Shown piece after piece: positions 4,284 through 38,393 of a DNA stretch of 64,000 bases. The translations under genes were made by a program, and so were the position numbers. The first letter of the stretch is position 1. Every line of letters begins with the position of its first letter. This DNA comes from Convolutriloba macropyga (Eukaryota), in NCBI RefSeq assembly GCF_964194025.1, contig NC_134477.1, positions 46,190,001-46,254,000 of the forward strand. Reading direction: 5' to 3'. The notes below the pieces were generated by a model. That model was not told the origin of the DNA. It was given only the letters and a program-made list of their open reading frames with translations, and made no database searches.

Positions 4284-4876
4284 CTGGAAAGTGTTGGTAT
4301 TAACAATATCAATCGGCCGATCACCCACATGATACCAAGTTGCAATGTATCCAAAGTTAGCATCAAATTTTGGATCTTGTAGCTTGAATATTACAGTTGA
4401 CAAGTCATTATCCGACATCCGTCGATATGAGACCTCGGCACCATCAATATCTCGTTTCTGTCGCGTACCCGAGACAAATTTGTTCTGAATCAAAGCCGGC
4501 GCAATTATGTACTCTCTCAAGTCGAAAAAATCTGAGGGAGTGATTGAAATTGCAGACGCATTTTTGCAATCAAGCACAACATAGCCATCGTTGCATATAC
4601 AAACTTTATTAAATTGAATGTCGAATAATTTAACGTTGTTGCTCAGCTGGACAGGATCCGAACATATGCCATCAGTGAGTGGATTCAAACTATTACCAGC
4701 GTCATCACCAATCGGAAAATCAGCGCAGAAACTGTCCGGGTTAAGAGGTATGATTGGGTCACGTGATCCCCTTTGGTCCAATTCAAACAACCAGGTTCTA
4801 GTGTAATCGTTATTATTTGTTGTCGGCAAATGTGTCACATTCTCTGTTCCAGATCCCTTCACTTCCCACAGTGTTA
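4284..4876 (-). CDS. NIDO-like protein paralogue A, exon 2 (593 nt)
   Basis: Acceptor TTTTTTTAG| at 4877-4878 and donor CAG|GTGAAT at 4283. Translation includes IIAP...YRR...YIATWYHV...NTFQ, typical of NIDO domains. Same length and boundaries as the paralogous exon 37801-38393. Confidence 0.85.
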
Positions 4877-8375: not shown

Positions 8376-9191
8376 ATCGTTTCAGTTTATCAGCAATAAT
8401 TTTCTTCAATAACCAACTTTTGCGTGCTTTCAAAAGCGTTTCTACGATGATTCTACAACTATTTAAAAATGCTTTAACTGCAAAATAAGTAGACCTGCTG
8501 TCTCAAAGTATTGTAACAAACTGGTTTTTCTCGAATGGTTTTTGTCTTTTTTCACAATTCTTCGTTTATCAAACTGCCGGCCAATCACATTAGTTCCAAT
8601 TTCTGTAGTAAACTGATAGCTAACAAAAACGTTCAAATTTTGCATTATTTTCATGTTGATCAGAAGTATAATTTTACATATGGTCGGTCTGGTTTATGAG
8701 CAGCTGCCGGCATTAAAAATTAATTTGCTGAAAGTTTTCTGTTGTTTACTTAATTTTCAACCAAACGGTGAACTAAAATTTTTGTGTTTGTCGGCTATAT
8801 CACAAGCCATGACATGACCGTGCAAAGATAAGAACACTTCTTTTTAATGTAAGTTGTCTTCAAATCGATAGAACGATAGAAAGTTTTCTCCTGTTTTCCT
8901 TGTGTTTTTTAAATCGTTTATATTCAACTTCTGAATAATGAAAAAAAATTAAATTTGTGTTGTCTTTGTCTCGAAGTCAAATTAATATTGTGGCGGAATA
9001 GGGGAGGGGATGAATTTCTTCTCATTGCCCATATTTTTCCAGTCAGCAATTGCTGTATTTCCCATTGAAAAATATAAGCAATATAAACTGAAAAGCATAT
9101 AGATCAGATAATAATTAATTATAAGGGTTTTTTAGAAGAAGCTATCCAGGTTTTTTGAAATATTTACTACTGATCTGTTACTGGATTATCT

Positions 9192-12196: not shown

Positions 12197-14271
12197 ATTA
12201 TTATATATTTTATTGTACATATATTGTAATCGAAAAAATTTAGCCTCTATAAATTTTTGGTTTGTGGGTACAAAAATTGTCTAGAACGGCGAGCCTCCCG
12301 CTCCCTCGCCAGCTGGACTGCCCATTTGCCTATCAGGCTCTTCCTGTTGCTATGCTGCAATCGGTTTCATTTCAGCAACATGCTTTACTTCGGAGTGAGA
12401 GCAATAGAGATCACTCAAAAATGAAGAACCAAAGCGTAAAAAATTCAGTTGAGAAGTAAAAAAATGTTCGAGAAGAAAAGCGCAGAAAGCTCAAGCAAAA
12501 AATTTGCATAAATAAGACCAACACGTTTAGACTAATTGCTACGAACTTGTGCGTTTCTTGATTTGTGCCGTTTCTTTTGACGCCATTCAAGTGCATAAAA
12601 TTTATGTGGTATCTTTTTCTCAGCTAGTATTGAAGTTTCATAGCAATAAGCGAAGAAGGTGAATATTAGCTAAAGTTGCAGCTTCTGGAACGAAAGTTCA
12701 AACTTATCTGCCAGTTTCTACCTTCCGGTAAACACTAAGTTTGCATGAACACATTAGTCATTTTCTAAAGTCACACCTATGGATGATCAGACCAATTAAA
12801 CCTTGTAATCAAATTCAAAAACGGTAAAAATTGAGCAAAGAACGCTCAAATTAAATTAATTATTTTTGAATTCCATGTTCTAAATTATTCAATTTATTTC
12901 AAACTTTCCATTATGGGCTCTTGTGTTTTTATTTCATGAAGGAGACTACGTTTTGTATTAAGTGGATTAAAATTGACCTAAGTTCTTCAAGTTTGCAATT
13001 TTTGGTACATTTCGTATCAATTTTAAACTATATCGCATTTGAAAGCTCTACAAGAGGAACAAATTTTGTTCAATTTAGAAGCTCTTGTTCGACAACTTCT
13101 GCAGCAGTTTGATATGAGGGCCTTCAATGAGAGGATAATGAAGAGATGGTTGCCAACAACTCACTTCAAATAACACAGTTCTTGCCTTTTTGTTCTAGTA
13201 CCATTTGGTCAAATAGATTGCAGCAACATAGAAAACAAAACTTAAATTCGAAAAACCTAATTTGTAATTTTTCATCAAGTCTATCATCAATTTCAATTTT
13301 CTAGATATTACAAAATTCTAGAGGCTGGAAATTTCTTTTGACGGACGTTAGGGTTCTTTAGAAGGGTAAAAAGGTTCATTTGATGTTTGAATGTCATATT
13401 TGCCTAGATTCTAATTTGCACAAAGACACCACCAACAACACATCTTTTCTGAAATCTTCTAATTGTTTTAATTTTTTTATATGAGGCGAGAGATCAAAAT
13501 TTTTTAGGTTCAACTTAATTAAATTGCACAAAAATGAAAACAATAAACTCATAATAACTGCCTCACTTATGTATTATGGGAGTTTATGTTAGAAGTGTAA
13601 ATTTTTAGTTCTAGATACAGAAAGATCTATTTGGTTAGTTCTACAACACAATTAAAGTCACCTAGTAACAATTATCGCCCATTTTTTTTACCTCATTATC
13701 ATCAATTCTGATCAGTTTTCAGGATAAGTTGAACTGAAAAGGCAAAAGGACGGCTTGTGAGAGACTGTACGTATTGTCGAATGTTCCAACATACGTCTCA
13801 AGTTCGTCAAAAATTATTTTTTGCTGAGATGAAAGTTTCTGTTGCAAAGTTTTTTCAAATTTGCAAAACTCAATTTAACCACTTATTCGGATTAAATTTG
13901 AGTACAATTTTCATAAAACATTTTTAAAATCAGAATTCTTATTGTGTCATAGTTTTCCCAGATGAAAAAACACATGGACTCACAATTATTTTGCCTTGTA
14001 AAACAACTTTTTACAGAAATTTAAAGCTCAATAAGAGCAATCAGTAACAGAAATTTTATTTTTAAAAATAGCCAGTAAGCTGCGAAACAAAATGCTTTGA
14101 TCAGTTTAAAAGCTAGGAAACGCAGACAATTGAGTTATTGGACAAGATCTTAGCGATTCCGATAAGAGCTGAAAAAGAGTAATTGAGAATTAAAATCACA
14201 AAATTGAATAAATTTTCCGATTTCCTTTTTTTCATAGAAAATATACCATATTGATAAAACTTCGAATCGAG

Positions 14272-14575
14272 TGTAGCAGTGGAAATACTGAATGTGCACC
14301 TTCAACCAATCAGAGACTGAGAAGACACTATTCTCTTTTATATAGAGAGAACTGAACTAACTATAGTCAGTCTTTTAATTAGATACACCATGTGTATACC
14401 ATTGAATCCGGTGCTATACTTCTTAACTACCGTATTAATAGAAGTTTACTCTCAGTGTTTTTCAGAGTCGGTTAGTCTTAGAGATATAGGTAAGTCTACG
14501 TCGCGGGCACAAATAAGTAGCCCTAGATCTTTATACTTTAAGGCTGTAAAAGGAGCCCACATCGGGTCTGCCTTA
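14272..14575 (+). repeat. 5' LTR of env-bearing gypsy element
   Basis: TGTAGCAGTGG...CTGCCTTA. About 12 substitutions versus the 3' LTR by manual count. Contains TATA-like TTTTATATAG (about 14336) and AG|GTAAGT (14490). Confidence 0.95.
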
Positions 14576-14577
14576 AC

Positions 14578-14592
14578 TGGTGCGACCAGTGA
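14578..14592 (+). promoter_or_regulatory. Primer-binding site
   Basis: TGGTGCGACCAGTGA lies 2 nt after the LTR and begins with TGG, complementary to tRNA CCA. The cognate tRNA was not identified. Confidence 0.7.
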
Positions 14593-14771
14593 TATAACAA
14601 ACTCTAACCGTACAAAGAACTCACACAGAACACCCCTTTCTCTCTTGAGAAAGAAATCTAGAACCAGATTACATAGATTTTTAGTCTTTAAATACTTAAA
14701 ATTTAAGAAAAAAGGGGACACAATCCCAGCAAAACAAAAACAACTGATATTTAAACAACAATATAACCAAA

Positions 14772-15570
14772 ATGGATCACTATAATGATCAGCCCTTCTA
14801 CCACGTACAAACACACTGGGACGAAATACAACTAGCTGTTCTGACACAACAGAACAAACGCTTGACACGCGAAATTTTACCCTTTGAAGTTAAACACTAT
14901 CAACACCAAGATGAGCTAAACATACTCTTAAATGCAGCAAAACAGCTTAAATACCTCTATTTTGCAAAAGAACAACAACCTCACCTTTCTTTACCAGAAA
15001 AAGCATCACAGGTTTCACGAACCGCCTTTCTTTCATACTTAGTTGAAATTTACGGAACTCAACTCACAAAATGTTCAGTTCTTTTCCTTTGTGATCCACT
15101 CACAAATAGTTATATCTCGCTAACATACGATACTCTGTTTCACCCCTTATCAGACACACTTTTTGAATTCGTTAACGGAATAAGGTCTGAAATACAACCC
15201 CCAGACAGAGGAGGAATATTTAAAAAATCTTCATTCTAATTTCATAAACGCCTTCACCCGCACTTAATACTAATGCTTTCCACTCTCGAAATGAAAGCAT
15301 ACAGAAAATTGCCCGGCAGGAAATAAAAGGATTCACTCAACTTCTCAAAATAAACATAAGCTCTGTCACAGATGCAGACTTAAATGAGGAAGAGATTTTT
15401 GACTCTCTCACACTTTTATCTTGGTATATACACAGATTTTGGAAAAGTCTGGTAAGACACATTTTTCCAGCCACCAAACTAATAGCAGAAATTTATCCAC
15501 AAATAATCACTAAATTACAGGAAACACTTCATTATATATGACCCAAATTGGTTTCCACAAAATTTCGTAA
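14772..15570 (+). pseudogene. Unassigned ORF upstream of gag (frameshifted)
   Basis: ATG-initiated 155-aa ORF with globular-looking composition. Protein-like sequence continues in shifted frames (RKIARQEIKGFTQLLKINISS...SWYIHRFWKSLVRHIF). No motif recognised. Confidence 0.5.
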
Positions 15571-15579
15571 ACATCACGG

Positions 15580-17000
15580 AAATTCCCTCCGACACAGACA
15601 GAAATCCGTACATTTTAACACAGAACCCATCATTCTTAATAATTCAACTCAACCCACACAAGGGACTACTCAAAATACACAAATCACTCCACAACAATTA
15701 GTAAATATTGTTAGGCAAACAAATTCACAAAGTGCGCAATAAAGTACAAGCGCACCGACTCCTTATTATCTATAAGTGGCGTCTACACAAACGCCATCAC
15801 TTGTAGTTCGCAGGAGTACACAAATGAAGTACCCCTACTTAGGCGGCTCGGTGCCAATGCAACTTTCTTTAAGCACATTTGACGGTACTGACCCCACTTA
15901 CACTACAGGAGATTCTTTAAATGCTATCAGAGCAAATATGGTACAGACAGCAGGACCAGAGCAGACTGATTCACCATTTCATGAAGCCTGGATTTTGAAA
16001 CGAATTGCCATGATCTAAACGGCCCTAATAGGACAAGCACAACAATGGTATTCACTTTTTGACCTAGACATGAAAAAGAATCGGCAAGCATTTTGCCGTG
16101 AATTTCAGAAAACATTCGATATCCAACATTCGCAAACACACGCAAAATTATTACTAGAAAGCATAACACGTGCTTCTGGTGAACAAATTAAGACGCTAGC
16201 ACAAATGAATGACGCACTCGTCAAAGCACTTGATCCACAACTTGTTAGAAAAGCACTTAAAAAGATTGCTAATCACAAATCAACCGCATTGGAACCACAA
16301 CTTCCATTCGCACAACTTGCTGAAAAAATACAGCAGGAAGACATTACATTGACAGGCACAAACTAAATACAAAATCTACTTTTTCACCCTCAATTAATAA
16401 CCTCTCTCTTGAGATAGATAATCTCACCGTAGATGATATACACCAATGGAACAAGATATTGCCCACGGAACAAATGTAGTACAACACAAGTACTCAAACG
16501 ACCCTAATTTTTTGAAGGAAAACCACTCTTCCTAAAATTTTGCGAAAATTGTTCCCGTTCAGGACATAGTATTTCTACGTGCCCTGAGAAAAGGTATACA
16601 AAACCACTTGATAAACCCAATTTTTAAAAACAAACTTTCAATCAAGCAATGAAAGGTAATCGAGACCTTCCTAACAGACAATTTACATCGAATAATATGA
16701 CAAGTAAACCACTACTATTTTTATATCGCTCCCGTAGCAATAGCAGAGAAGATCGAAATCACTCAAGACACAGAAGTCCAAAAAAATTCTTACAAATTAA
16801 TTCAAAACCCTATTACGGAAATAGCCACTTCAAACCACCCCGGAGAAACGGTTCACCATACCCAACACCAAATTTACAAACTAATTCACAATAAAATTCT
16901 AGACCACAATCACCTCACTATAATCGAGACGGAAATCGCTCACGACAACAGTTCTCACAAAATCGACTTCGTATTGTTGGAAACTATATTAGTTCATTAC
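15580..17000 (+). pseudogene. gag: gag (disrupted)
   Basis: Capsid-like segment (LSTFDGTDP...ALIGQAQQWYS...FCREFQKTF) and a perfect CX2CX4HX4C knuckle CENCSRSGHSISTC at 16541-16582, followed by an R/S-rich tail. Confidence 0.8.
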
Positions 17001-17026
17001 TAGAGCAAGAACAATCAGACAACACT

Positions 17027-20000
17027 ATGTCAAATACCGAAAATACACACACTACAAATGTCTCCGAGGAAACACTCCTCGAACAACTATTTAATGATTT
17101 ACTTTTAGAATTAAATGAAGACACACAAGATGAATATTTCAATTGCCATGAAGAATGTAATAATCTCACAGAAAAATACATTCTCTCTACCTCCTGTAAA
17201 AATAATATATGGGTACTACCACTCTTAATCTATACTCAAAAAAAACTTGATCATAAGAAAACAATCTCCCCACCACATCTAGAAATAGATTTTCTACTAG
17301 ACTCCGGTGCAACACTTAATGTATTGAATACTGACACTTGGAATGAAATCAAAGACTACCACAAATTACAGCTGGAAGCATCAACATTTGTTCTCTCAGC
17401 AGCAAATAGTTCTAAATTACAGTCAAAAGGTACAGTAAAACTTACACTCTACCCAGTTGTAACTGAGAGTCCAACTCTCAAAAATACTTCGTTTACACTC
17501 ATTTTTTATGCATTAAATACCAAATTTAATATTCTAGGTACACTTTTCCTTGAAAAATACGTAGATTCAATTAAATGTTCATCTCATACACTTGAGCTCA
17601 AACATAAAAATGATGTAAAGTCACTAAAATTCCACGATTCATCAATTTAACCACCCCTTATTATTCATGCTTATTTCCACTAATTGGAGATCACTCAGTA
17701 ATTTTTACACCATCTGAACACCGTATTTTAACGTATTGGTTAATCGCATATGAATGTAAAAATAAAAAAGCAAGCGGTACCATCCTCTATGCATCTGATT
17801 TCTCATTTACATCACTACGCAAAAATATGTTTTTCTCTATAATGGATATAAACAATCTCGAATATCCCTATCAATCATTTATTCAAATTTTAATACGAAA
17901 TCTTTTGAATCACCCATTAACACTCGTAAATGGAATAATTGGATATGCACTAAATGATGTATCACTCAACAACTACCAAACCATAAAAAATTGCATAAAA
18001 GAACTAACATAATTCATGGATGCTTATACTTTAAATTACCTCACTCAAGGTACGTCAGAAACACTTAAAAAACTTTATTGCTTAAATCTTAGTAAGCAAA
18101 AAGAGCGCGAATATAAATCACAACAGAAAAAATTCACTATACCCTTTGATGTCTCAAAATTCACCAAAACGGGTAAAGCATTTCTCACCATGTTTAATTT
18201 TGAACAAACACAATTAACACAAACACAATTTGAAAAATTGGCACCATTTCTCAAACAATTTCAAAAGTGTTATGCAACTTCCAAGTTCGATATTGGAAAA
18301 ACTAAAATAGAACTAAATCTTCTTCTCAAAGCAACAGCTATCTTTAAAAAAACAAAGAGCTATTCGTTTTCCACTCCAATTACAAGATAGAGTACAACAT
18401 TTACTCGACATCTTAACACACTTTGATATTATAGCACCCGTGAATACAGATTCTGAATCTGTATTCGTGAATCATAGCACCCGTGAATCACCGGAAATAC
18501 ATTCATTAACCCAGTAATCATCCTTAAAATGAGAATCCTTAAAAATTGTCCTAGACGCCCGTCAATTAAACACAATGATTGACAAAACAAAATGTAGTTG
18601 GCCCATAGAACCAATTCAGATTTTTCTAACACGGATTTACGGACCAATTTTCTCTATAGCTGATATGAACAGTGCATACAGTCAAATGCCACTTGATAAA
18701 CCATCAGAAAGACTCACAAATTTTGTGATTGCTGGACAACAATACTGTTTTTAACGCCTATTCTATGGTATTTCTATTGGCCCAGCAGCTTTTTCATCCT
18801 TCATGAGAAGTATTTTTAAACCACCAGTTAGAAAAAACAACATAATCACTTATCTGGATGACATTTTCATCCAAGACAAAACAACAGACACAATGTTGCA
18901 AACAATTACTCAATATCACACTACTTTAGAGAATGAAAACCTCAAAGCGCTCCGGACAAATCGTTATTTTTCTTAGACTCAGTTAATTTTTTAGGACACC
19001 AAATTCAAAATAATCACATACACCCACTCAAATCAAAAATAGACGGATTTTTAAAACTACAACCACCCAAGAATAAAAAATAATTTCAAAATTATGTCGA
19101 ATTTCTCACCTTTATTTCAAAATATATATACAACCTAAAAGTCATTCTTCGACTTTTTTTTATCTCCAACTCAGAGATACAGCAGATTTTAAATGGACTC
19201 CTGAATTACAACAAACACAAAGAGTCAAGAACGAACTTGCGGACGGAACACTCCGCCTCGCAATTCCGAATTCAGAAAAACCTTTCTATATTCTTTGCGA
19301 TGCCTCTAACTGTGGCATTGGAGCAGCACTCCTCCAAAAAAAATGAATTTGAAAAAATGGAGCTAGTGCCGGCAAACTCTCGTCTATTTTCAACCACAGA
19401 ACTTAGATTATCAACCATTCTTCGCGAATGTTCAGCCATCATATATGCACTTTCAGAATTTGAAGTCCTTATTCAAGGATCTAAACACCCAATAATATTA
19501 TACACTGACCATATACCAATTTTATTCTTAATCATACCAAAGAATCAAAAGAATAAACCAAATCACAGAGTTTACAAATTTCATTTAATACTAATGAAAT
19601 TTCCAAAACTACAAATAGTTTGGACGGAAAGAAAAAATCTTTCACTTCCAGATCTACTAAGTCGCTCACTGACAACAACAACACAAGACGAACACCATCA
19701 TCGCACAGTCGAAATACCAGATTCTCTTAATTTCTTTATGACGCACAATCAAAAAACACAACCTATACAGTGTCACTACGCAGTATCAAAAGAATACATT
19801 AACACGATATCTACAGACACTCATGTAGAATCACTTTCCAATCTACTTACAGGTTGAAGATAATTATTTGAAAGTACAAATAGAAAATGATCTTTATCCC
19901 CCAGTCTCACATTATGAATTTAAAACCAAAGCACAGACCTTAGAGAATATGCACCAACAGAAACTACAACAGTTTAAAAATAATTACCCTCTCCTAGAAA

Positions 20001-21738
20001 ATTATCCTATTATACAACACAGAGATGTCACACTAAACACAAACAAGACAGAACCTTTCATACAATTCAACCACAACGCAAATTACGCTGAATTAATATA
20101 TAGTATAACACTTCCAATCCCAGCAATGGACGACTTTATACCAAAGTCCCCAACCCTTTACAATTACATCTACGAGGAACGAACTGAAATAAATGATACA
20201 CTCCTCTATCAAACACAACAACAAGACCCTGTTCTAAGACAACATCTACTTTGGAAACACTACAAAAATTTCCCCCCAACCTCTTCACTAACTATACGAG
20301 CAAAAGAGGATTACTACATTATTATCGACGTTTTCAAAATCTAAGCATTAACGAAGACAATAATCTCCTGTATTACATACAAGAAACAACGTCACCAAAA
20401 ATGTGCCTACCACTCTTCTCCTAGTTTTTTTTTATAAAGCACACTCTCATGATCTTTCAGGACACCCTGGTCGTGAAAAAGACACGCAACAATCAAGGAA
20501 AACTATTTTTTCCAATCATTAATACATGAATAGCAATACTTACACAAGATTGCTTAAGTTGCCAAACTAGCAAATCGATGCCAAATCTCTTAATGGCATC
20601 ACAACAGCCATTCATTGAAGTTTCACCATACTTCAATCAACGTATTTCAATGGATACAAAAGGTCCAATCTCACCGCCTTCTGACGGAAACTCTTACTTC
20701 TATGTTATTGTAGACGCATTTACGCATTATGTTATACTCCACCCTTCTCCCAAAAATGATGCCACTAATGCACTCACAATTTTATTTGACCACTCGATTG
20801 TTAAATTCGGCATTTCAGATATTTTGGTGACAGATAACGGAAATGAATACATTAAGGGAGAATTCACGCATTTCTGCCGTACACATAATGTACAATTCAA
20901 ACCACGTACGCCATACGCACCGTGGTCTAATGGACGGACACGTTGAAAACAGTAATCGCCAAAAAAACACATTTCCCCGTACAGTCTTAGACTCACAATA
21001 TGACACGTGGTCACGCAAAGTGAAAGTTTTTTCGTTTGCATTCAATTCACAGGTCAGGACAAATTTGAACCTTCTACCATATGAACTTGTATTTGGTCAA
21101 AAACCAAAGAAACCTATAATGTTCAACCTATTTTCCACTACAGATAGCTTAGGAAACTGTAAACCTACAGACAATTCACCTTGTAATTCATTCCCTGATC
21201 ATACACATAGTGAACACTTAGGCCATCACCCACAAATTAAAAAGTTACAGAAAGGAACCTTTGCACACTGATTTCTTAATCGTGAAAAGATGCACTCGGA
21301 AATTTATAACGAAGTACATAATTATTTAAACCAAAATAAACATTTACGCACATTTATAAATCGCCGCTTTGGAATGGCACAAACACTCAAAATAAACACT
21401 TATGTTTTAGTCGTAAATAAAACCACACAAATCGGAGTATCAAAAAAATCCAACCACAAAAAATTGGACGTTATAAAATAAAAGATACTCCCACATTGGT
21501 CACGTATAAATTAGAAGATATCTCTGGCAAGCAAATCACCCGTCATAGAAGTAATATAGTACCATATTATCCCAAAGAACTCTTCGTTCAAGAGCAAATG
21601 GAGAAATACTTCTCGGATAGTTCACTTTTAAAACTCCATCCAAAAAAGCCACCACTTACCAAGTCGAAGACTGTCTCGTTCAGTCTAGACAATTTAAAAG
21701 TACCATCCACAGATGACCTTCCCCCAACTACCTTGTAA
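17027..21738 (+). pseudogene. pol: pol: protease, RT, RNase H, integrase (disrupted)
   Basis: Protease FLLDSGAT (about 17290). RT FSIADMNSAYSQ and YLDD (18851-18862). RNase H ILCDAS...LYTDH...PDLLSR. Integrase GHPGREK/CLSC, SMDTKGP, VTDNG, PWSNG. Confidence 0.93.
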
Positions 21739-21814
21739 CCCGTCTGAAATACCCGAACACACTTCGGAAAACTACACTACAAGAAACAGTCGTCTTCACG
21801 AACAACGCACACTT

Positions 21815-22071
21815 AAAATTTCGGCTTCAGGAACAACGCACATTTAAAAGCATTCACACTTCACTAATAGAACACACGTTAGATCAATCTTCTCGCTTTA
21901 TATAGCCAAATACAAGCTAGCATAACACGCTAAATATTTAAATCAAAAATTTCGGCTCCACAAACAACGCACACTTAAAAGCATTCACACTTCACTAATA
22001 GAACACACGTTAGATCACCCTTCTCGCTTTATATAGCCGAATACAAGCTAGCACAACACGCTAGATATTTA
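21815..22071. repeat. Two about 131-bp direct repeats downstream of pol
   Basis: AAAATTTCGGCT...AACAACGCAC...GCATTCACACTTCACTAATAGAACACACGTTAGATC occurs at about 21815 and 21946. Confidence 0.9.
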
Positions 22072-22714
22072 CTAAAAATATTCACGATAAAAATACAATC
22101 CCCTCGTTCTCTTATACGAGAGGGATATTTCGAATAGTTCCTTCACCCCTCTCCCCCGTAATACATTACTTTCAATAGGAAAATTAATCAAACCTCTTAG
22201 CCCAGTAAACAAAGCACACGGACTTTCTCTTCACCAGCTTCCCTAGCAGAACCACAAAAACCCTCATTCAGGAAAAGAAAAAAAGGGAATTACAGGCCCT
22301 TCCCCACGATAATAATAAAAAGGAAAATAACTAAAAATTAAGTTAATAACCGACCTACAGCTCGGTCCGGGAAAAATTCCCCAATCTCATTTATTTGCCA
22401 AGATATTACTCGGTAATTTTTTGCACCCCACTAAAATGTCGTGGTCAGGCAAAATCATATCGTCTAAAATCACTTTTCAGTCCACCACTCTTGAAACTTA
22501 GTTGCTCCTCTCTTCTCTCTTATTCTTTCAACAATATTCAATAATCTACTACTGAACTTCTCTTCTTCACTCTTTTAAATTTTAAGTTAGAAAATCTCTC
22601 ACTTTTGTAAGTAATTTTTATTTCTCACTTCTTCTCTCTCTATCAAGAAAAAACTGTCTCACAGTACAGTTCTTTAGCTCTTCTAAACTTTAATTTCCTT
22701 GACTTCACTTACAG

Positions 22715-24470
22715 CTCACAGAAAGCTCTCAAAAATCTGAGCAGGGAAGCAACAACGACTACAACACTCAAATCATAACTTTCAGTCTCACAGTACTGAA
22801 AGCATCCTTTTCGACAGATTTTTAACAGGTATGCACATAACTTCTCAACACAGACTAGAAGTACTATTTAAAAGAACACCCTACGCTGATACTTTAAGAT
22901 GTATCCAAAATTTTAAACCTAGACAGGTCCGTTTTCAGGATATTTTGTATAACCCTGATCACATTCTATATTCGCATACTTGTTCTGAATGGGGTTTTAC
23001 ATTACAGATTTTAATAACGAACACATTTCTATTATAACGAAACTTTCTATCTTCCTATTTTTTCCACCATAAGCTACGCCAAAACTCTCTGAAATTCTAT
23101 ATACAGATATTGTCTGCACTGTTAATCTCGACGCTATCCCAGCCTCATATGATATTAAATACATTAAGGAACTCCTAAGATTGGATGAACAATACCAACA
23201 AATTGTCAAACAACAACAAATCAACAAATGAAATTACATATCCGCACGTTATTTTTTTCTTTGAACGAAAAGAATACCTAATTGCTGAAATCTTAACAGT
23301 TGTTCTGCTGATTTTTTAGATCTCATCTATCTCCATAATTTCATCCCACCAAAATCACCCTGCGCAGCAATCCAAGTAAGTATACCCACTATAAATCTCT
23401 TAATAATTGTTATACCCACATCTACTGATTATAAAATCTATTATTGCGATAATTGCCCCAATCTGGGCCAAAGATTATCGTCACAATTGCGTCCTCTAAT
23501 CAACAATCAAACACTAACCCAAGTGCTCCCCCCGTCTCAGAATCGCCTAGTTGCTCATGCAGCGAAGCAACTAAACAATCAACAGCCAAAAAGTCATCAT
23601 ATAAACTCTTTAATAAAAAACCACAAACACAAGAAACCGAGGAGCCCTCATACTCAGTCATTACTACTGCCAAATCTACAGATAGACCTCGTCCTACTGG
23701 ACACTCCCCCCACTTTTCCCCACAGTCGGTAATCCCATATCCCCCATCAAAGTCAAACGCAAATACACCAAACGCAAGCACAACAACAACAACAACAAAT
23801 AACTGCACAAACTTTATTGCCATACACTGGTTTTCTTCCAAATACGACACTCCCACCACCCACACTTATACCAGCTCCTCCACGAGCACCACAGCCTGAA
23901 TTACTAAATTATTCAAACATTCCACAGTTCTCCACTCAACCAATAAATTTTGCAAACACTGATAAAACTAGTAGCTCAGATTTGCCACAGCCAATTCAAA
24001 CTGTCTCAAATATTCACGATACCCCACATGCTTTTAGCCTACTTTCTGACACTTCTAACTCTGATCCAATTAGTTCTCATTTTTCTTCACCGACTGCATC
24101 ACAAAATGCGAATAATCCTTTTAATTCGCCACAAGGACAAATAACTAATTTTGAATGTTTGTTATCACAAGCACACTGGAACCACTCTTTTAATTTTTCA
24201 ATTCATCACCTTCTTTCAAAACTCGCAGCCACCCAGTTTTCCGGGTACACCACTCATTATCACTTTAAGCTCAAATTCACCGACACCAGATCCGGAACAA
24301 CATTCTCATCACTGTATTGGGAAACAACCCGACACAATACGAACTTATCCAACTCTACCATTTAAATTAGATCCTAAATTTATTGTTCCCCCACCCGCCC
24401 TCTTTGGAGACAATAATAACGGAGAACAATTACATAATTGGGCTAAACAAAAAATCTCTAAATCATAACA
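22715..24470 (+). pseudogene. Unassigned ORF remnants between pol and env (globular segment, then Pro/Ser/Thr-rich segment)
   Basis: Overlapping plus-strand ORFs 22831-23037, 23453-23899, 23817-24365 and 24151-24468 are joinable by frameshifts. No motif recognised. Confidence 0.45.
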
Positions 24471-24479
24471 TTTCCACAC

Positions 24480-26750
24480 CTAAAACAGGCATACCAGATG
24501 TTGTCGTCACGCATTATGACTGTTCACCAAAGCATATCACAAATATGCAGTATTATAAACTCAATAAAATTGGCGAGTGTAAAATTAATCCGGCCGACTT
24601 CAAAATCCTCGCCGCCCAAGTACAAATTTTTCACAAATCCGAACACTACAAGTAGCCGCTTACGCCGTACACGCTAAACTTAGTGATAAGGAAAGCTTTT
24701 GTCACAAAATTGCACTCAAAAGTGGTTTTCGGTTTGATCACGATAATTGGAATGTTAATAAAATGGAACGAACTTTCTTTCAAACAGAAACTGAAGGTCG
24801 TCGAGAACTTGCACGAGTTGGTCTAATAAGTAAAACCCAATATCGCCCTCTAATGATACAATTCGACGTAATAGACGACCCCCGCTGGCAAGCTAATATA
24901 GAAGAAAAACATGTCCGTTTTTGTTTAGATCGTTATAGACCCTTTTCTTTCCAACACGGAGGCATCTTTTATAACCCACGTGATACTAATTGGATTCCTA
25001 ACGCCACAAATAATCCCTGGGCTAACTGTCCCGGTAAAAACGCAGAACACGAATATCATGTCATCCACACACTAGGAGGGTCATTTCAATTAAATAACAT
25101 CACTCACACCTGTGATTTTACCTCAGAACACATGTACTATGGCAAAATTCGCAGTAAGTGTGATCTAGAACGAGGTCACTGCCCTCCAAATCACGCTATT
25201 AAAGCCACAGTAATTTGGGAACCCGAACACCACTGCCGTATTTTTGATGTTGGAAGATCACATGCACGTATGATTAAATTTCAAAAAAGATACTTCATTG
25301 AAACACTCGAAAATAATGAAACTAATTCTGGTCATAAACACAATGCACACATGTATTGAAGTCGCTTTCAAAAACACCTTTGCGATGAATCCTCACTTTC
25401 TCGTTTTGAGGTTCTCACAAAACACCTCTACAAATGTAATGAAGACCACCCATATTACGCCACTCAATATCAAGACATTTTTATACAATAAAAAGAAGGT
25501 TTTAATTTTGTCTCAGGAAAACCGTCACCCGACTTTGATATTACACACATTACAGTCCCTGACGGACCACCCTCTTTAACACCTTACACAAAAGCAAATA
25601 TCCGTGATGGATATTTTATTCCTCAAGAGTCACAATTATATCACAAATCAAAAAATTACGAGTTAATTAGAAAACAAAATTGGTTTGGCGCTGTTCACCT
25701 TGATGTCCAAATTGATGCAAAACATGATTACATCATCAGTCGAGTCTTGCTCGGAATGGATCAAACAAGTTTGAACATTTATAAGAAACTCTGCGACTTA
25801 GACCCGACTTGAACAAACCGCTTTCATTTTACTCACACAGAAATTTTCTTTGGTTGGTTATATAATTACAGGACAGCGACACACATTCGCTACACTTAGA
25901 AGTCAAAATATAATTTCACTCTTTCAATGTAAAGTTGTTTCATCACCCCTTTATGTATTAGAAAACCATTGCTTCGAACGTACTCCTATATATTATCAAA
26001 AAAAATTACAATTTGTAGGCCAAGTCACCCGAAAGACCTTCCCCTGGTCTAAAAAAGCATCGTGTAAATCTAAAAAGTTTGATCAACAAATCTCACTCGA
26101 CGCAGACGGCGATGACACATATCGCTTAACACCCTATGCAATTAAGGCGCGAAATTGCGTTAAAACTTTTACGCCTGACGAAGTTGAAAACCGCTTCACC
26201 CACGCTGATTTTACCGCGCAACAACTTGAATTTACCGTCAACACGACTGGACTAAATCAATAGATAAGAAGAAATTTAATCAATTAGTTGATGACGCGGC
26301 TGAAAAATTTGATGTAGCACGCGCAGTAAAATTTGCAGATATTGCAAAACAAGCACAATTACAAGCACAATTCTCACAATTACACATAGAATATAATGAT
26401 TAGTTTAACAAACTCTTTATTAACGGCAAAGAATTAACCCTCCGCCGACTCGATTGGCGTGACTTGATTTTTTACAGTGTCTTTAATTTTTAATTTTAGT
26501 GTGTTTTTAATTTTTTACAGTGTCTTTTTTGCCTATTTTGTAGTGCATTTAACACGTATAATCTAAAAAAACTTTTAGGACCCAACATCACATTGGCTAA
26601 AATTATAACCTCCGGATTTTTTGGAGTATTTTCACAAACAATATTCCATGTGCTACAATCCGATTCCACGCAATATAAACCACCATCACCTAAGAACGAC
26701 GTAGACACTCAATTGACAGTTGCACTCCACACTCTCAACATGAATTGAAT
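24480..26750 (+). pseudogene. env: env-like glycoprotein resembling class III (chuvirus G / herpes gB-type) fusogens, disrupted
   Basis: Ordered motifs: VVTHYDCSPKHITNMQYYKLNKIGEC (YDC at 24515-24523); VQIF..QIRTLQV; CDLERGHC...VIWEPEHHC; KCNEDHPYYATQYQDIFI; IDAKHDY...IYKKLCDL (helical); IISLFQCKVV...CFERTPI...FVGQVTRK...ASC; hydrophobic segment at about 26460-26640. Confidence 0.75.
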
Positions 26751-27060
26751 TTATTAAACAAAAAATTCGAAAATTTCTATAAGAAATTCTCGTCTCTTGT
26801 GCAAAATAACTCAAATAAATGATATACATCCACTCTTCCAGCCTCTATTTATCAATGCTATGAAACACCAATTGATTCTTGTACGAAACCAGACTTTCAA
26901 TCTCTACACCTACACACCTTTCAACCTAATAAGCGTAAACGCTCACGTGTAATTTCTCTTTCACGCGACTCTCTTGACAAAGATCCTGACTATCAGGAAA
27001 TTCCAGAGGAACTTTTCCTTAACCTCCCAAGTTCTCGTCTTTAACACCTTTTTGTTTTAG

Positions 27061-28818
27061 TAACTCCACTGCAGTTCCTACCCACCAAGAATGAGGCTCA
27101 CCAATCCCCCCAAATGTCGATCCTACAGCATACGACCTCACCATGCTGGAGGTTGATGACGTTCTGCCATCACCCCTCACTCCATTGCTACTGGCACCCA
27201 CAGTACCCGGACCAGTTTGCGAAATGCAAACACCAGCCCTCTTCACGATGGCGCAATTTTCCCCACAGCCACAGTCTGTGGACACAGTCAAATATGCGCG
27301 GGTGAACCCACTGCCTTCACCTGCCACTTCTTCCTCCACTCTTTTCTACTGCGCACACTGCAGTATCCACATCACAACCACCAATCCAGTCTACGAGCAT
27401 TCCATCTTGGGCTGATGAAGTCGCCACAGCGGAGGAGTCAGGCAACTCCACACCAGAAACGGTTGTCCCCAACTGGGCGTACTCCGGTAGGCTTTGTGGA
27501 GCACGACCACGATCACAGCAACTGGTCTACACACCGCCAGTGATGCCAACACCGCATACACAACGCCCGCCGGTACCCTCACCGCGGTACGGCACGGCTT
27601 TACCACCTCTGAGACCACAACAATCTTTCCCTCAGCCAATCCCCTACAACAGACCCACGTCAACCGACAATTACCCGTGTACTGATCCCTCAACAAAGAA
27701 GCTCCCACGGCCAACAACACACGAAATATATATCCCGTTCGCTCTTCACCGATACAGGCTTCACAGTCGCCTGCTCGTCACACAACGAGCCCTTCCTGAG
27801 GCGCTCAGCCCTCATCTTCTCGCGGAAAGCCTAACCCATTCTCACCAACACACGGCATTCCACGCAGGTCACAACGACCAAATTTCAGATTCCACGAGTT
27901 TACAAACCCTCTCGGCATTAATACCATCCAGGGTATACAAGTGCCAGAGAGAATCGATTATACTTCCACTCCCCCTCAGCACACGCTGAAAGCAACAACC
28001 AGTTCCTGGACAATTGGAGAACGAATATGTTCAAGAAGGACGGAACAAGGATCTGCCCCTTGAATGCATGCACTTCCCTCTAAATCCTTGCTTCACGGAA
28101 CAATTTCGGCATCTCTCAAAGTACTTCTTTGCACTTGCAGATCGACCAAACGATTACCTTAATTCTTTCTTTACTCGTGACACTGCAGCCTACAAAATAT
28201 ATGCCAAATACGACCCCCTCTATTTACAATTTGGTTTTTTACATCCCACAAAGTTGGATGTAAATAACACCACTCATGAAGTAAATCGGGTGAAAAAGCT
28301 CCACACGATGCACACCTACTTATTTGTGCAGCATCATTTTCAACACACAAACCCGATCATCCACATGAACTCGCGTCTTCAGTATGCTAACACAAAGCTG
28401 ACTTCACCATATTATATGAATTACAGCTACATAATAAAACCCAACTATTGTGAAGGCACCCGTCGTAATTCTGACCCGATCAAAAACTATTTCTCCACTC
28501 TATGCCAAGACTATTCGCCCCATCCTCGTCCCAATCGAGTATCTACAATGTGTAGAAGGAAGCGCCACGAAGTGTGCCTATAGACACACTTTGAACCTCC
28601 TCTACAGGGACTGGATGGCCGATAAGCTCGACAATCGACAGCCTTCACCAGAAGAAACACAGATATTCAATCACCCTCTTGCGTTACAACCACACTGTAA
28701 CGCTGATCTGTATCCCCGTGCCCTTGCTGCTTGTCTGGCACGTGATCCGGAATTCCTCGCCTTCTTCCGTGATCCAGACAACCGAACTCCGGATTTCGAT
28801 TTCGAATACCGGACGTAG
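27061..28818 (+). pseudogene. Unassigned long ORF remnant downstream of env
   Basis: ORFs 27540-27989 and 28014-28583 share a frame separated by one TGA, flanked by 27143-27415 (CAHC motif) and 28450-28818. GC is higher than the flanks. A splice-acceptor-like TTAAC...TTTTTGTTTTAG ends at 27060. Confidence 0.55.
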
Positions 28819-29484
28819 GCCACCAACCTACAGCACCACTTTGGGCTCACAGACCCACAAAACGAGACTCACTGATCTCAAAAACTCAATCTAAAATTAT
28901 TTTTCTCTTTTTCTTATTTCTCTTTCTCTATTATCTATGTCTGAAGATCAGGATCAGTTCTTTTCTTCTTCTTCCCGGTCGGGACTTACAAAAGAAAGTA
29001 TTAAATCTCACTAATAGATTTAATAGAAAAAGTAGCTCACGCATTAGCTAAATGATGGATTTCCACCAGAAGGTAAGCTGGTAAATCCGACTGGTTCAAA
29101 CCTTATACCAGGTGGAGATAAACAGAAATTTCCTCGTGCAAACCAGACAGAGACTACGGACTACAAGCGATCCTCAAACTTGGAATAAATCCTCACTACA
29201 GGACAGTGAGAGCAGTTGGGCATACTCTCAACAGGACTGAAGTTACTGGCCAGCAGACCCTGTATCGGGCAGTCTTACTGGTTACACAAACGAACCTTTT
29301 TACTGACGACACTAGTCACTACTTCACTGACAGGGACTCCAGACGACGACACAAGTCACAATCCACTTCAGAGAGGACACAACTCATCACTCACTTCAAC
29401 CTACCCTTCAACGAGGATGACACATTCAATGTATTTCTGCTGCACTTCACAAATTCGGATTTGAAACTCTCAACCCCGGATGGA

Positions 29485-29788
29485 TGGAGCAGTGGAAATA
29501 CTGAATGTGCACCTTCAACCAATCAGAGACTGAGAAGACACTATTCTCTTTTATATAGAGAGAACTAAACTAACTATAGTCAGTCTTTTATTTAGATACA
29601 CCATGTGTATACCATTGACTCCGGTGCTATACTTCTTAACCACCGTAATAATAGAAGTTTACTCTCAGTGTTTTTCGGAGTCGGTTAGTCTTAGAGATAT
29701 AGGTAAGTCTACTTCGCGCGCAGAAATAAGTAGCCCTAGCTCTTCATACTTTAAGGCTGTAAAAGGAGCCCACATCGGGTCTGCCTTA
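29485..29788 (+). repeat. 3' LTR of env-bearing gypsy element
   Basis: Direct copy of 14272-14575, followed by TSD CGAG. Confidence 0.95.
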
Positions 29789-32700
29789 CGAGATTCAGTT
29801 ACAGACTTTAGTTTAAAAAGTGTTACCGAGTGCCAGAAATTGCACAAAAAGAGTTCAAAATTATAATGACTTTTTTGCAACAACTTTGTTTCGAGTTATT
29901 TTCAACTCGTTTGTCCTATATTCAAATAATTATATTTTGTTCATTTTCTAAATGAGTTACTGAAGTCTTTTATATACTCAAGCTGCTGGTTTTTGTAAAT
30001 TGGTGTCAATCAAACGTGAATTCCATAGAGGAGGTGTAATTCAAATACGGTCAAACATAAGTCGACGAGAATGCTGCAGGGTTTTTCGATGACTGCGGTT
30101 TTAAAGGCAAGAAAGGTATAAATTGAAATTCGACATTCCTTTTCTTATTCAATTTATGTTTTTGATTATCCCCTAAAAGACACTCATATTCTGTTCATTT
30201 GCTGTCAAAATGAAGCTCTTAAATTTAGGAGACACTGTGACAAAGTATTTAAAAAGTGCTCGAAACAGTTCATCAAGAAAACTTGTTGTTACATTTCCAA
30301 GATTTTTTCCCTTCTGATCCGAGTTGTTTTAAAGCGGAATTGTACCGGCAAATTCATAATTTTCACTTTCAAATTAAGGGTAAGTACCCGGCTATTACAA
30401 ATACAATTTTTTCAAACAACTGTTTTTTTTCCTTTTTTTTAATTCAAAGAAATTATAAAGATCTTCTGATAACCTTACAATTCAAAACAAAATTTCTGAT
30501 CACGTTTTACCTACTAATTAGTTTAAAAAATCAGAGAGATCAACAGAACAAAGATAAAAAGGCTTCAGTTTTCGTTTGTTTCTTTCGCGCTCTCTAAAAA
30601 TAATTGTATATCATTCCTTCATTAATTGTTTTTTCCTTTTGCTTATTTAAAATCTTTGTCAGTTTAGAAACTTCGATTCACAAATTTAATAAAAAACTGT
30701 TTTCTGTTTTGGTATTATGGCAAAACAATGAAAAAAAAACTATTTAAAAAAACTAAAAGAGAAACGACGTGGAAAATGAAGAACCTCAAAGAAAGTTTTT
30801 TTGCGCTTTGAACACTTTTTCATGGAGTTATATTTTAATTACCACTTTGTTTCAATTTTCCGCAATTTAGCGTAACTATGAATTCTTAATTTATTAACTT
30901 AATTTTAAAAAGTTTACAACAATTTTTAATATAAAGAATTTTTTTTACCCCAACCCCCCAAACACCTTCATGACTTTTTTTGTGTTATCCCGCCAATTTT
31001 TTTAAAAAAAAAAATCAAAGCACCGCTTTAAACCTGCAATAAAAATGTAAATAAACATCAGAAGTAGACTCTGAGGGCTACAAAATGATGCTTACCATTT
31101 TTGTCTACAGTTCGTAATCAAAAATGTTCGAACAAGGAGAACATAGCCGACAGATTGCCGGAAAATAGCCGCCGTTGACGCTATTGATGCATATCTGGAT
31201 TGAAACCGAAAAAAAAGAAGAGATACACTGAACAAAATTTTTTCTATTTTTTTTTCAGTGTCAAAAGAGTTCCATTTCGGCGTGCAGTTTTGGTTGGATT
31301 CTAAAACTATACTTAATTCAGCTTCTAAACTAAAACCTAACAAGTTTAATACCAATTTCAGCTAGCAAACACTCTAAAGAACTTTGATAACCCAATTCTC
31401 AATGAAAAAATGACCGGGTTTCATTGGTTTATCCCGTCTCTTTTGATTTTGCTCTTTTGCTATTGAATTTATTCCCTATCTTGAGTATTTCAATGAGTGA
31501 ATGGATTTAAACGACACTCAGTTGAAACAGTGAGTGAGGTAAGTCAGAAGTCAAACGTGAAAGTCGTGACTTATGTAAAAGAAAAAACGTGATCAAACGG
31601 TAAAGCGAAATAAAAAAACAAAGAAGGACAAGTCCTGAAATACATTTCAATGAATTGTTTTAATTTACGACCTGACAATCAGTTAGTCTGCTCTAAAAGG
31701 CAAATGAGAGCTGATAATAATGAGACTAATACAACAACACAAGAACAACAAATACAAGCAAGATTTAAAAAAGTTCAACATTTAATTTTTGAAAAGAAGT
31801 GATCAATACCAAAACACAATTGCTATGAAGTCAAACTTCCAACTATACCTCTCCACTTTTCATAAATCAGATGCCATTGAATGACAATGGGTCCTCCCAC
31901 TAGTAATATTAAATAACAAGCCAAAAATAACCAAAAACCAAAAAAATTCGCCTACATTTTTTGAAAACACTTAGTATAAAGGTAACAGATCGGAACAGCT
32001 ACTGAGGGATACAATTACACTAAATAGTTTAAATCCCAACTACCAACGTTGAGGCCTGTCATCAGTGAATTGAAGTGATAAGACAGCAATAACTACAACA
32101 AACACTAGCAAAACAAAAAAATCAGTAAGATTTCTTTTTAGAAAAACGAACCAGCGATCCAGTGTATAAATCACAAAAGGCAATAGCTATGAACTGAATT
32201 GATGAGCTTTAATTGAAACCCTTTTTTAGGAACCGATGAATTTCGATAAATATTTTTGAGAACAATTAGTTTCAATGTCATAGAAAGCTCTAGCTTTGAA
32301 CGAAAACAATTAAATCTATAATAGTAATTCCTATTAGCAGCGTCAGATACCTGTCCCAATTAGATTACAAGATAAGACATCAAAAAATACAATAAATACT
32401 TGCAGAACCCAAAAAATCAGTCATGTTTTTTTAGAAAAAGTAGTGTCGAAGTCATGAAAACCACTAGCTATTAATTCGAGCCATTAATTAGTTTCTTTTA
32501 TGCCTCATTGGCAACCAATCAGACCTGTCATTGATAATACTAAGTGATAATACAACAAATATTACAATAGTATTTTGATATAAATCACGCCTCAAACGTA
32601 CTCGATTTTTCGCACCCTTTACTGTTTCAGTTTCACCAAAATCACCCATCTAATTTGACTTCTCACTGACGTGAAAAAGCCGAAAAAAGCCTGAACAGAT

Positions 32701-37800: not shown

Positions 37801-38393
37801 CTGAAAAGTGTTAGTGTTAACAATATCATTCGGCCGATCACCCACATGATACCAAGTCGCAATGTATCCAAAATCAGCATCAAACTTCGGATCTTGGAGC
37901 TTGAATATTACAGTTGACAAGTCATTATCCGACATCCGTCGATATGAGACCTCGGCACCATCAATATCTCGTTTCTGTCGCGTACCCGAGACAAATTTGT
38001 TCTGAATCAAAGCCGGCGCAATTATGTACTCTCTCAAGTCAAAGAAATCTGAGGGAGTGATTGAAATTGCAGATGCATTTTTGCAATCAAGCACAACATA
38101 GCCATCGTTGCATATACAAACTTTATTAAATTGAATGTCGAATATTTTAATGTTGTTGCTGAGCTGGACAGGATCCGAGCATATGCCATCAGTGAGCTGA
38201 TTCAAACTATTGCCAGCATCATCACCAATCGGAAATTCAGCGCAGAAACTGCCCGGGTTAAGAGGCATGATTGGGTCACGTGATCCCCTTTGGTCCAATT
38301 CAAACAACCAGGTTCTAGTGTAATTGTTATTGTCTGTAGTTGCCAAAAGTGAGACATTTGCTGTTCCCGATCCTTCCATTTCCCAAAGAGTAA
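37801..38393 (-). CDS. NIDO-like protein paralogue B, exon 2 (593 nt)
   Basis: TTTTTAG| acceptor and CAG|GTGAGT donor. Highly similar to 4284-4876. Contains RQKR and YIATWYHV...NTFQ. Confidence 0.88.

Follow-up and report, generated by a model that had tools for sequence, protein, structure and literature searches.

The decayed element and its genes

The window, i.e. the whole 64,000-nucleotide stretch of Convolutriloba macropyga DNA that was analysed, harbours a decayed Ty3/gypsy copy, one of hundreds in its family. The copy carries two 304-bp LTRs on the + strand (5' LTR, 14272..14575; 3' LTR, 29485..29788), which end in TG...TA rather than TG...CA and show 12 mismatches to each other, and is flanked by the unstranded target site duplications CGAG at 14268..14271 and 29789..29792. 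The unit of about 15.5 kb at 14272-29788 proposed in the preliminary description was thus borne out. The primer binding site (14578..14592, +) is complementary to tRNA-Met(CAT) and matched the 3' end of the host tRNA-Met(CAT) genes; its 14-mer occurred 826 times genome-wide versus 2 for a control. For the polypurine tract, no clear purine run was found within 20 nt upstream of the 3' LTR. The coding remnants are all on the + strand, in the order first reported, and the window element was again found free of internal LTRs or TIRs that would mark nested insertions.

Gag-Pol (14772..21805, +) is a single gene, broken in the window, with an N-terminal 'ORF0' domain (14772-15538, +), CA, CCHC, PR (DSGA at 17300, +), RT (YLDD at 18851, +), RNase H and integrase. 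ORF0 had been listed as a gene of its own; in natural copies it opens one Gag-Pol frame, of 1775 codons in family 1 (the family of the window copy) and 2582 codons in a second family of the same genome, family 2. Pfam matched Retrotrans_gag, RVT_1, RT_RNaseH(_2), Integrase_H2C2, rve and SH3_Tf2-1, and the domain order was gag-PR-RT-RNase H-IN with gypsy-type profiles. The RT scored higher against Ty3-G (7q5b, 101.7 bits; 4ol8, 103.4 bits) than against foamy (50-61 bits; Pr125Pol, 61) and MLV-type enzymes (p80 RT, 42 bits); judged by these scores, it is much closer to Ty3 than to either and does not belong to the retroviral RT lineage. A quick tree of 61 RT-RH rows, midpoint-rooted, with a long-branch warning and without curated reference clades, placed the lineage in its own clade of 12 rows (SH-aLRT 100, stem 1.61). 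The sister RT group P0327 had no match in G000 at strict cut-offs. The Bel/Pao-type domains DUF1759 and DUF5641 were absent from the element's Gag-Pol in Pfam; a neighbouring element in the window does carry domains of this type.

Downstream of pol, the tandem repeat of the earlier account, a 131-bp duplication (21815..22071, +), could not be kept as a family feature: among the 15 copies in which the unit was detected, it was single in 13 and doubled in just two, the window copy and one other, and is thus nearly private to the window copy. The spacer (22072..22830, +) is largely non-coding (dN/dS 0.67-1.43 across three frames) and contains pyrimidine tracts, the acceptor-like TCTCACAG repeated at 22657 and 22786, and a conserved CAG/GT immediately 5' of the ORF-A ATG. 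The following region (22.7-24.4 kb), formerly ORF-X, is indeed a coding extra, but it is not one gene and consists of three selected ORFs. ORF-A (22831..23231, +) is broken in the window and encodes 128 aa in an unbroken natural copy. ORF-B (23185..23732, +) is selected over its first ~100 codons, and its tail overlaps ORF-C in another frame. ORF-C (23486..24467, +) runs for 430 aa without any Met, with a likely AUU start at 23486, and combines a P/S/T/Q-rich N-terminal part with a conserved C-terminal domain of ~120 aa, a domain largely deleted from the window copy. This copy lacks 346 nt at the C/env junction, a gap that takes in the last part of C and the signal peptide of env (stretch covered by 28/31 rows), and 445 nt in gag (covered by 27/31).

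The env gene (24467..27044, +) is broken in the window and without its N-terminus; in a natural copy it encodes 881 aa with a signal peptide, a TM segment and a long tail. It matched Pfam PF24664 (E=8e-14 and 3e-13), has hydrophobic segments at both ends and shares 12 Cys with the family 2 env, and by sequence it is a gB/class III-like glycoprotein. Behind env lies ORF-Y (27061..28818, +; ~620 aa, first ATG at 27143), also broken in the window, with a P/S-rich N-terminal half and a conserved C-terminal domain of ~270 aa. This domain is weakly predicted to hold a Tudor/KOW-like barrel: in a model with mean pLDDT 57 and pTM 0.38 (an earlier model reached pLDDT 40), residues 99-159 aligned with Spt5/NusG KOW, PWWP and Tudor structures over 50-60 residues at rmsd 2-4 A, with VIA Z scores of 5-6, which fall inside the tool's noise range. 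Foldseek searches of the model against PDB and BFVD gave no E <= 0.001 (best E 0.013). Y has divergent relatives in other assemblies, forming at least four further divergent groups; the best Pfam results on 64 of these relatives, ATP-cone (4/64) and IreB (3/64), were taken as noise, and the Y groups P0204 and P0257 had no match in G000 at strict cut-offs. Pfam gave no match for A, B, C, Y or the family 2 extras, the C and Y profiles and env returned nothing usable in a PDB sequence search, and C and Y returned nothing usable in the ESM Atlas. The searches with C and Y turned up no homologue in hosts or viruses; A and B were scanned against Pfam only. In these comparisons A, B, C and Y fit no known family.

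Selection on the extra genes in two families

The extra regions recur in other genomic copies, as the preliminary description had supposed: all nine tested parts were present in 21 of 30 compared copies, and the part order was kept in 30/30 compared family 1 copies. Copies were picked partly for long open Y frames or for having both ORF0 and Y, a choice that might bias the sample towards Y but would leave A, B and C unaffected. Identical LTR pairs occur, so family insertions are recent.

Our dN/dS analysis revealed that A, B, C and Y are under purifying selection comparable to that on pol. Shared-variant values in family 1 (31 rows) were 0.02 for A (N/S 8/87), 0.17 for B, 0.05 for C, 0.04 for Y, 0.07 for env and 0.05 for RT, whereas singletons gave 0.81-1.35, i.e. 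around 1. Family 2 (20 rows) gave 0.17 for A', 0.11 for a, 0.05 for b, 0.12 for B', 0.06 for C' and 0.04 for Y', so that the extras ranged from 0.02 to 0.17. Selection was frame-specific (P 1e-8 to 1e-186), and the off-frame values contrasted with the low in-frame ones. The value for ORF-B holds outside the overlap with C; inside it, dN/dS was 0.85 and selection on the B tail was not detected, while C itself showed 0.21 there. The preliminary count of env plus at least three extra ORFs was right in that the extras are real, but ORF0 drops out and ORF-X becomes three. The selected extras thus number four in family 1 (A, B, C and Y), which also has a probable peptide encoded in the LTR, and six in family 2.

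Family 2 is ~21 kb long and has the same layout as family 1 in 12 of 20 fetched copies; the two RTs are 62% identical. It carries homologous C and Y at the same positions (the C-terminal domain of C is 40% identical to its counterpart), together with two additional short membrane ORFs, i.e. TM ORFs of 58 and 50 aa. The B and C frames overlap in family 1, while those of family 2 lie end to end. For A and B, no homology was detectable between the families, and the similarity of A to B' was marginal (E 0.01); this unlikeness points to turnover of the extras.

Splice-like sites and probable AUU starts

The LTR contains a hydrophobic ORF of 33 codons (14390..14489, +), whose end coincides with a conserved splice donor, the GT at 14490. 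An in-frame ATG was present in 38/47 LTRs, 36 of them with the ORF open, and its shared-variant dN/dS of 0.39 indicates moderate constraint; it is probably a first coding exon. The peptide is absent from family 2. The LTR donor was kept in 26/26 family 1 and 16/17 family 2 copies, and the donor at the A start (22828/22829 in the window) in 21/26 and 16/17, respectively, as scored with an approximate generic donor matrix. A further donor-like site, AAG/GTAAGC, is located in the 3' UTR (29070..29078, +) in 28/29 copies, with an equivalent in 19/19 family 2 copies. Just 3' of the env stop there is a conserved acceptor-like TTTTAG (27054..27060, +), whose distance to the first Y ATG was 70, 79, 82 or 85 nt (1 mod 3) in 21 of 24 motif-bearing copies, and the Y frame upstream of that ATG showed 0 N and 17 S changes. 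One stretch before ORF-A that could serve Y as an upstream phase-2 exon was open in only 13/24 copies, compared with 7 and 8 for the remaining phases; in the subgroup that includes the window copy it is out of frame. No phase-2 exon could be firmly assigned upstream of Y. The unspliced leader frame showed weak selection (dN/dS 0.46, P 0.055).

An RNN-ATT-G start was kept in 21/25 copies for C, 14/17 for a, 14/16 for B' and 15/17 for C'. The four ATT start columns, which were chosen after being seen, had no shared synonymous change, compared with 78/102 and 56/72 ordinary ATT columns with one. C begins with ATT-GCG-TCN in both families and is depleted of ATG in all frames (2 versus 7.6-10.5 expected; 3 versus 9.3-10.8; P 0.002-0.02). 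From the donors, the frame-keeping Y acceptor, the four RNN-AUU-G starts and the AUG depletion before env, we infer splicing plus leaky scanning. The scheme that we regard as probable has three kinds of RNA: unspliced RNA would give Gag-Pol and the genome; RNA spliced to the spacer would carry A-B-C-env, on which ribosomes would start at AUU or at a weak AUG and leak on to env; and RNA spliced to the post-env acceptor would give Y, to which an upstream coding exon would contribute in family 1.

It is rather unlikely that translation of the ORFs lacking AUG depends on frameshifting, readthrough of stops or spliced exons that escaped detection, instead of on AUU initiation. The overlap of B and C in one family and their abutment in the other would suit such routes, as would the acceptor-like sites inside B and C and the apparent need of Y for an upstream exon; however, frameshifting predicts neither the shared start of C nor its AUG depletion. 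Readthrough from B' into C' was rejected because the spacing from the B' stop region to the C' ATT took all three phases in 15 copies.

Relation to known elements and proposed roles

In complex retroviruses, accessory genes (vif, vpr, tat, rev and nef in lentiviruses, pX in deltaretroviruses, tas and bet in foamy viruses) are located between pol and env and behind env, in overlapping frames, with a major 5' donor and a post-env exon, and cassettes of several accessory genes count as a hallmark of the complex retroviruses of vertebrates. The lineage described here likewise has accessory genes on both sides of env and overlapping frames, with a predicted 5' donor and post-env exon. However, its RT is Ty3-like, its env is class III-like and no homology to retroviral accessory sequences was found; the likeness is one of architecture and is convergent.

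The earlier proposal that this Ty3/gypsy lineage bears env together with accessory genes of its own was supported by their presence in other copies, purifying selection and the lack of nesting. The window holds a dead copy of such an element, from a lineage with four to six selected accessory genes around env, whose expression probably resembles that of complex retroviruses, with alternative splicing from a donor in the LTR and leaky scanning. Y may act as a regulator in the manner of Tax, Rev or CERV through its predicted barrel, a role to which we give slightly less than an even chance; the ligands of the barrel would be methylated host proteins, chromatin or RNA, and Y would promote transcription or the export of unspliced RNA, or blunt silencing. 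More tentatively, A, B, C and the short membrane ORFs could work with the gB-type Env in particle assembly, egress and spread from cell to cell. Comparably tentative is the broadest reading, in which an invertebrate Ty3/gypsy lineage would have become a full complex retrovirus independently, i.e. an infectious element of 16-21 kb, active until lately and found in several host genomes, with a class III env, a spliced post-env regulator of the Tax/Rev kind with a Tudor-like reader domain, and a polycistronic orphan cassette, translated by leaky scanning from AUU starts.

That the extras are captured host or viral cargo (e.g. anti-silencing or host-manipulating), without a role in the element's own RNA regulation or in its spread, is quite improbable. 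Other LTR elements are described as capturing enzymes as extra ORFs (PMC5408684, PMC6431247), and the turnover of A and B would fit; against this, C and Y yielded no outside homologue (A and B within Pfam alone), both occupy the same positions in the two families, Y occurs in at least four more divergent groups, and selection among element lineages implies a benefit to the element either way. The idea that the extra regions of an otherwise ordinary gag-pol-env element are filler without coding function, or separate insertions nested in it, can practically be dismissed: it would suit the heavy damage to the window copy and the failure of its fragments to match any family, but frame-specific selection with neutral singletons, the fixed order and the same layout, with homologous C and Y, in a second family of so different an RT speak against it.

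In the literature covered, no more than one or two separate extras are described for any known Ty3/gypsy element. The third ORF of Cer1 in C. elegans is an element-specific 3' gene as well, and its spliced product CERV is needed for unspliced RNA export, the role proposed here for Y; however, as described there it replaces env and is not fusogen-like (PMC10309623), whereas a true env is present here beside four to six extras. No CERV-named match appeared in the Y searches, a comparison by name alone. The MDG1-group elements have the short accessory ORFs sORF1 and sORF2, one encoding a transmembrane protein for cell-to-cell transfer, to which the short TM ORFs of family 2 may be likened by description, but they are described as lacking env (PMC11952523). 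Burro of planarians (extra domains and env inside one polyprotein), Ogre of plants (1-2 extra ORFs, long LTRs) and rotifer elements (one ORF3 of recognisable enzyme type) are likewise oversized Ty3/gypsy elements with extra coding capacity; in these accounts a multi-gene cassette flanking a separate env is not described (PMC6431247, PMC5408684). For the proposed AUU starts, the plant pararetrovirus rice tungro bacilliform virus (RTBV), in which the first ORF is initiated at AUU and the later ones are reached by leaky scanning, is an analogy of mechanism alone (PMC5902531).

Close to the lineage in plan are also the gB-type 'ancient errantiviruses', described as three-ORF elements (Chary and Hayashi, eLife 2026, PMC13524379), which share the Ty3/gypsy pol, the gag-pol-env order, an HSV gB/chuvirus-type env, LTRs, a tRNA PBS and multicopy young insertions. 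Unlike them, our elements are 16-21 kb long, with 2.8-5.3 kb and three to five selected genes between pol and env and one gene behind it. The words 'accessory' and 'extra' are absent from the main text of that study, and a motif search of seven of its supplements, which may contain no sequences, gave no match. No description of the lineage was found in the literature by titles and abstract starts (outside bioRxiv supplements and subscription journals). Taken by its sequence features, then, it is a complex-retrovirus-like variant of env-bearing Ty3/gypsy, previously undescribed in the literature searched, with predicted protein roles. The genome plan of complex retroviruses would thus have arisen in parallel in a Ty3/gypsy lineage, with young copies in two families and with at least four to six families of proteins unlike any known type. 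The first filter of the errantivirus study accepted a POL-ENV gap of <=1 kb and 10 kb overall, with manual extension by 3-5 kb in some phyla (PMC13524379); screens that demand env close to pol likely miss this whole class of enveloped elements.

Gene content of the element and its genomic copies

The window corresponds to C10:46190001-46254000, and the element within it, at 14272-29788, was bounded by two 304-bp LTRs on the forward strand (14272-14575 and 29485-29788), each beginning with TG and ending with TA, and CGAG was present on both flanks, which upheld the preliminary description of an LTR/TSD-bounded unit. The LTR pair differed at 12 positions. A PBS at 14578 was complementary to the 3' end of host tRNA-Met(CAT) genes, and its 14-mer was counted 826 times in the 1.18-Gb genome versus 2 for a control. 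The window copy is a dead element: stops or frameshifts interrupted all of its genes, with 445 nt missing from gag and 346 nt from across the C/env junction. In profile searches, its fragments matched protease (weakly), RNase H and integrase, the remaining ones giving no meaningful match. Two long Pol inserts, at about 17650-18200 (between PR and RT) and 19700-20200 (between RNase H and integrase), had no Pfam match.

The genome gave 2103 candidates for ORF-Y and 1052 for ORF0 at first look, 150 being scored for each, and 30 loci with a long open Y frame, or with both ORF0 and Y, were fetched. One natural copy, L001/L002, whose two 328-bp LTRs are identical, was taken as the frame reference. 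In this copy, a 1775-codon frame opened by ORF0 spanned CA, PR, RT and RNase H; a second frame of 792 codons with integrase and a 0.87-kb spacer followed, and then in order ORF-A (128 aa), ORF-B (219 aa), ORF-C (no Met), env (881 aa) and ORF-Y (about 620 aa). All nine tested parts were present at a coverage of at least 50% in 21 of 30 rows (29 copies and the window, the reference excluded), and their order was kept in all 30. This layout and synteny indicated that the extra genes are a property of the family, that ORF0, earlier listed as an ORF of its own, is the N-terminal domain of Gag, and that the former 'ORF-X' is indeed coding but consists of three genes (A, B and C) rather than one. The tandem repeat was dropped as a family component, its 131-bp unit being single in 13 of the 15 copies where it was detected. 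The earlier reading of the element was thus supported with a corrected gene list.

Selection on the accessory genes and related families

Variants were sorted per codon column into singletons, representing post-insertion decay, and those common to at least three copies, representing lineage changes; multiply changed codons and those beside gaps were excluded from dN/dS. In family 1, the genomic family of the element, singletons were neutral (0.81-1.35). Shared variants gave 0.10 for ORF0, 0.05 for PR-RT, 0.07 for IN and 0.07 for env, and the extra ORFs proved to be constrained as well: 0.02 for A (8 N / 87 S), 0.17 for B outside its overlap with C and 0.85 inside, 0.05 for C (0.21 within the B overlap) and 0.04 for Y. 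As controls, A, C, env and Y read in shifted frames gave 1.6-7, and the spacer gave 0.67-1.43. We are practically certain that the accessory genes are real.

A Y relative with 40% identity (P0015) led to family 2 in the same genome, found at C12:4972445-4993443 and 19 other loci (L062-L121), with a length of about 21 kb and an identity between paired LTRs of up to 100%. Twelve of these 20 fetched loci were LTR-bounded at 20.0-21.6 kb with the family 1 PBS and three at 18-24 kb; at five, no LTR pair of the element was found. One copy held an intact 2582-codon Gag-Pol frame, and a 556-codon open Y frame was common to many. The gene order was A', two short hydrophobic ORFs (58 and 50 aa), B', C', env' (1132 aa) and Y', with a spacer of 2.8 kb, and all of them, the six extras and env', were under selection (dN/dS 0.04-0.17). 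Identity between the families was 62% in RT, 40% in the C domain, 34% in the Y domain, 30% in env and 22% in the Gag N-domain, and no clear homology was seen between them for A and B.

The Y-domain profile matched 221 proteins among 1.84 billion representatives. Among the matches listed (150 of the 221, with 13 from an earlier search), Y relatives formed six groups, 26-43% identical, and included no named protein; two of these groups, other than those of families 1 and 2, were sought in this genome at strict cut-offs and were not found. Further Y groups (P0204-P0208) came from other assemblies. A third RT group (P0040-P0092), 64% identical to both families, has a 2740-aa Gag-Pol in a cluster of 1493 members, and a link of those Y groups to its element is only putative.

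Proposed expression and protein functions

Splicing combined with leaky scanning from AUU is, judged from the sequences, the probable expression mode. ORF-C lacked Met over 430 residues in family 1 and 379 in family 2, and RNN-ATT-G stood at the start of C in both families and also of a (one of the short ORFs) and B'. The four start ATT columns, picked post hoc, had zero shared synonymous change, versus its presence in 76-78% of ordinary ATT columns. AUG was scarce across C in all frames (medians of 2.1 versus 18.1 and 2.7 versus 21.2 per kb, C versus env). These features fit initiation at AUU with leaky scanning to env, as demonstrated in RTBV (PMC5902531). C, a, B' and C' would be initiated at AUU, and ribosomes would leak on to env.

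Y would be read from an mRNA spliced to an acceptor after env, with an upstream coding exon in family 1. Exactly three strong predicted donor positions were kept in both families: one within the LTR, one immediately 5' of A and one in the 3' UTR. A conserved TTTTAG was situated 3' of the env stop, and in 21 of the 24 family 1 copies with the motif (five more rows lacked it) the first Y ATG followed at 70, 79, 82 or 85 nt, always 1 mod 3; the codons before this ATG showed 0 N / 17 S. The constant phase of the spacing and these counts make a further coding exon 5' of Y probable, an arrangement that is also found in the post-env regulators of complex retroviruses. In family 2, a strong AUG lay 13 nt downstream of the acceptor-like site (6-9 rows covering it). 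The family 1 LTR carried a 33-codon hydrophobic ORF terminating at the donor; its ATG lay at 99, 105 or 108 nt in 38 of the 47 LTRs, and the ORF was open in 36. A mini-exon ahead of A is a weak candidate for the middle part of a possible three-exon route: it was open in 13 of the 24 copies, and in the subgroup to which the window copy belongs it was out of frame. For the 3' UTR donor (29070-29078, also in family 2), no acceptor was evident further downstream within the element; this donor could splice into the LTR or host sequence. At gag codon 231 of the family 2 copy L102, a donor-like site in phase 1, located where the Gag N-domain ends, was kept in 14 of 18 and was in phase with A'; by analogy with CERV, it could give a Gag-A' fusion.

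Sequence searches assigned A, B, C and Y to no known family. For the Y domain, a model from 64 sequences reached pLDDT 66-84 in a small beta-barrel and the helical bundle after it, and 57 overall. The modelled barrel could be aligned (Z 5-6) with domains of the KOW, Tudor, PWWP and chromo-barrel kinds, and Foldseek gave E 0.013 or worse; the match is a lead only. In view of its place after env, its predicted splicing, its low-complexity arm and its barrel, the role that we favour for Y, at slightly less than even odds, is that of a Tax/Rev/CERV-like factor that would regulate transcription, RNA export or silencing of the element along the lines of CERV (PMC10309623). The short membrane ORFs of family 2 are reminiscent, by analogy only, of sORF2 (PMC11952523).

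Affinities of the element and other features of the window

The element belongs to Ty3/gypsy. Its Pfam domain set was that of Ty3/gypsy, and Ty3 was the nearest solved structure to its RT. In a quick RT-RNase H tree built on 61 non-redundant rows (taken out of 112 long matches), a long-stemmed clade with support 100 comprised both families, the third group and nine rows of 41-46% identity, rows outside having at most 31% identity; as the tree had no curated references and carried a long-branch warning, it shows isolation of the clade, not placement. The env claimed earlier was confirmed: it matched Monjiviricetes_fusion, a signal and a TM segment were recognisable as hydrophobic stretches, and 12 Cys were common to both families. 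From its sequence it appears to be the gB type described by Chary and Hayashi (PMC13524379).

By its RT the element is not a retrovirus, but it is organised like complex retroviruses and departs from the three-ORF errantivirus plan. Ty3/gypsy elements with env are already known, as are single extras (CERV, sORF1/2, rotifer ORF3s, Ogre, Burro) and additional genes in some Ty3/gypsy clades (PMC2774666). In the literature searched, covering few subscription journals, we found no element in which a separate env is flanked on either side by a multi-gene cassette under selection; the filters of the main survey would probably have left out this layout (Chary and Hayashi, PMC13524379).

Elsewhere in the window, the reverse strand carried a Bel/Pao-type remnant (48099-54406; DUF1759, DUF5641), a separate, unrelated Ty3/gypsy pol (60059-64000) whose 1314-codon open frame runs past the window end, and two host-like exons, 92% identical, with a weak NIDO match (4182-4892 and 37750-38415), apparently a duplicated gene. 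Several tandem duplications of 1.2-2 kb and a 166-bp repeat array with an inverted repeat nearby lay at 1-2820, 9187-11670, 40631-43959 and 55118-57297. Tandem arrays matching the primer tRNA 3' end (94 matches genome-wide) were located at C1:77.67-77.77 Mb and C4:55.03-55.13 Mb, and tRNA-Met and tRNA-Thr genes were confirmed in the two scanned C1 loci.
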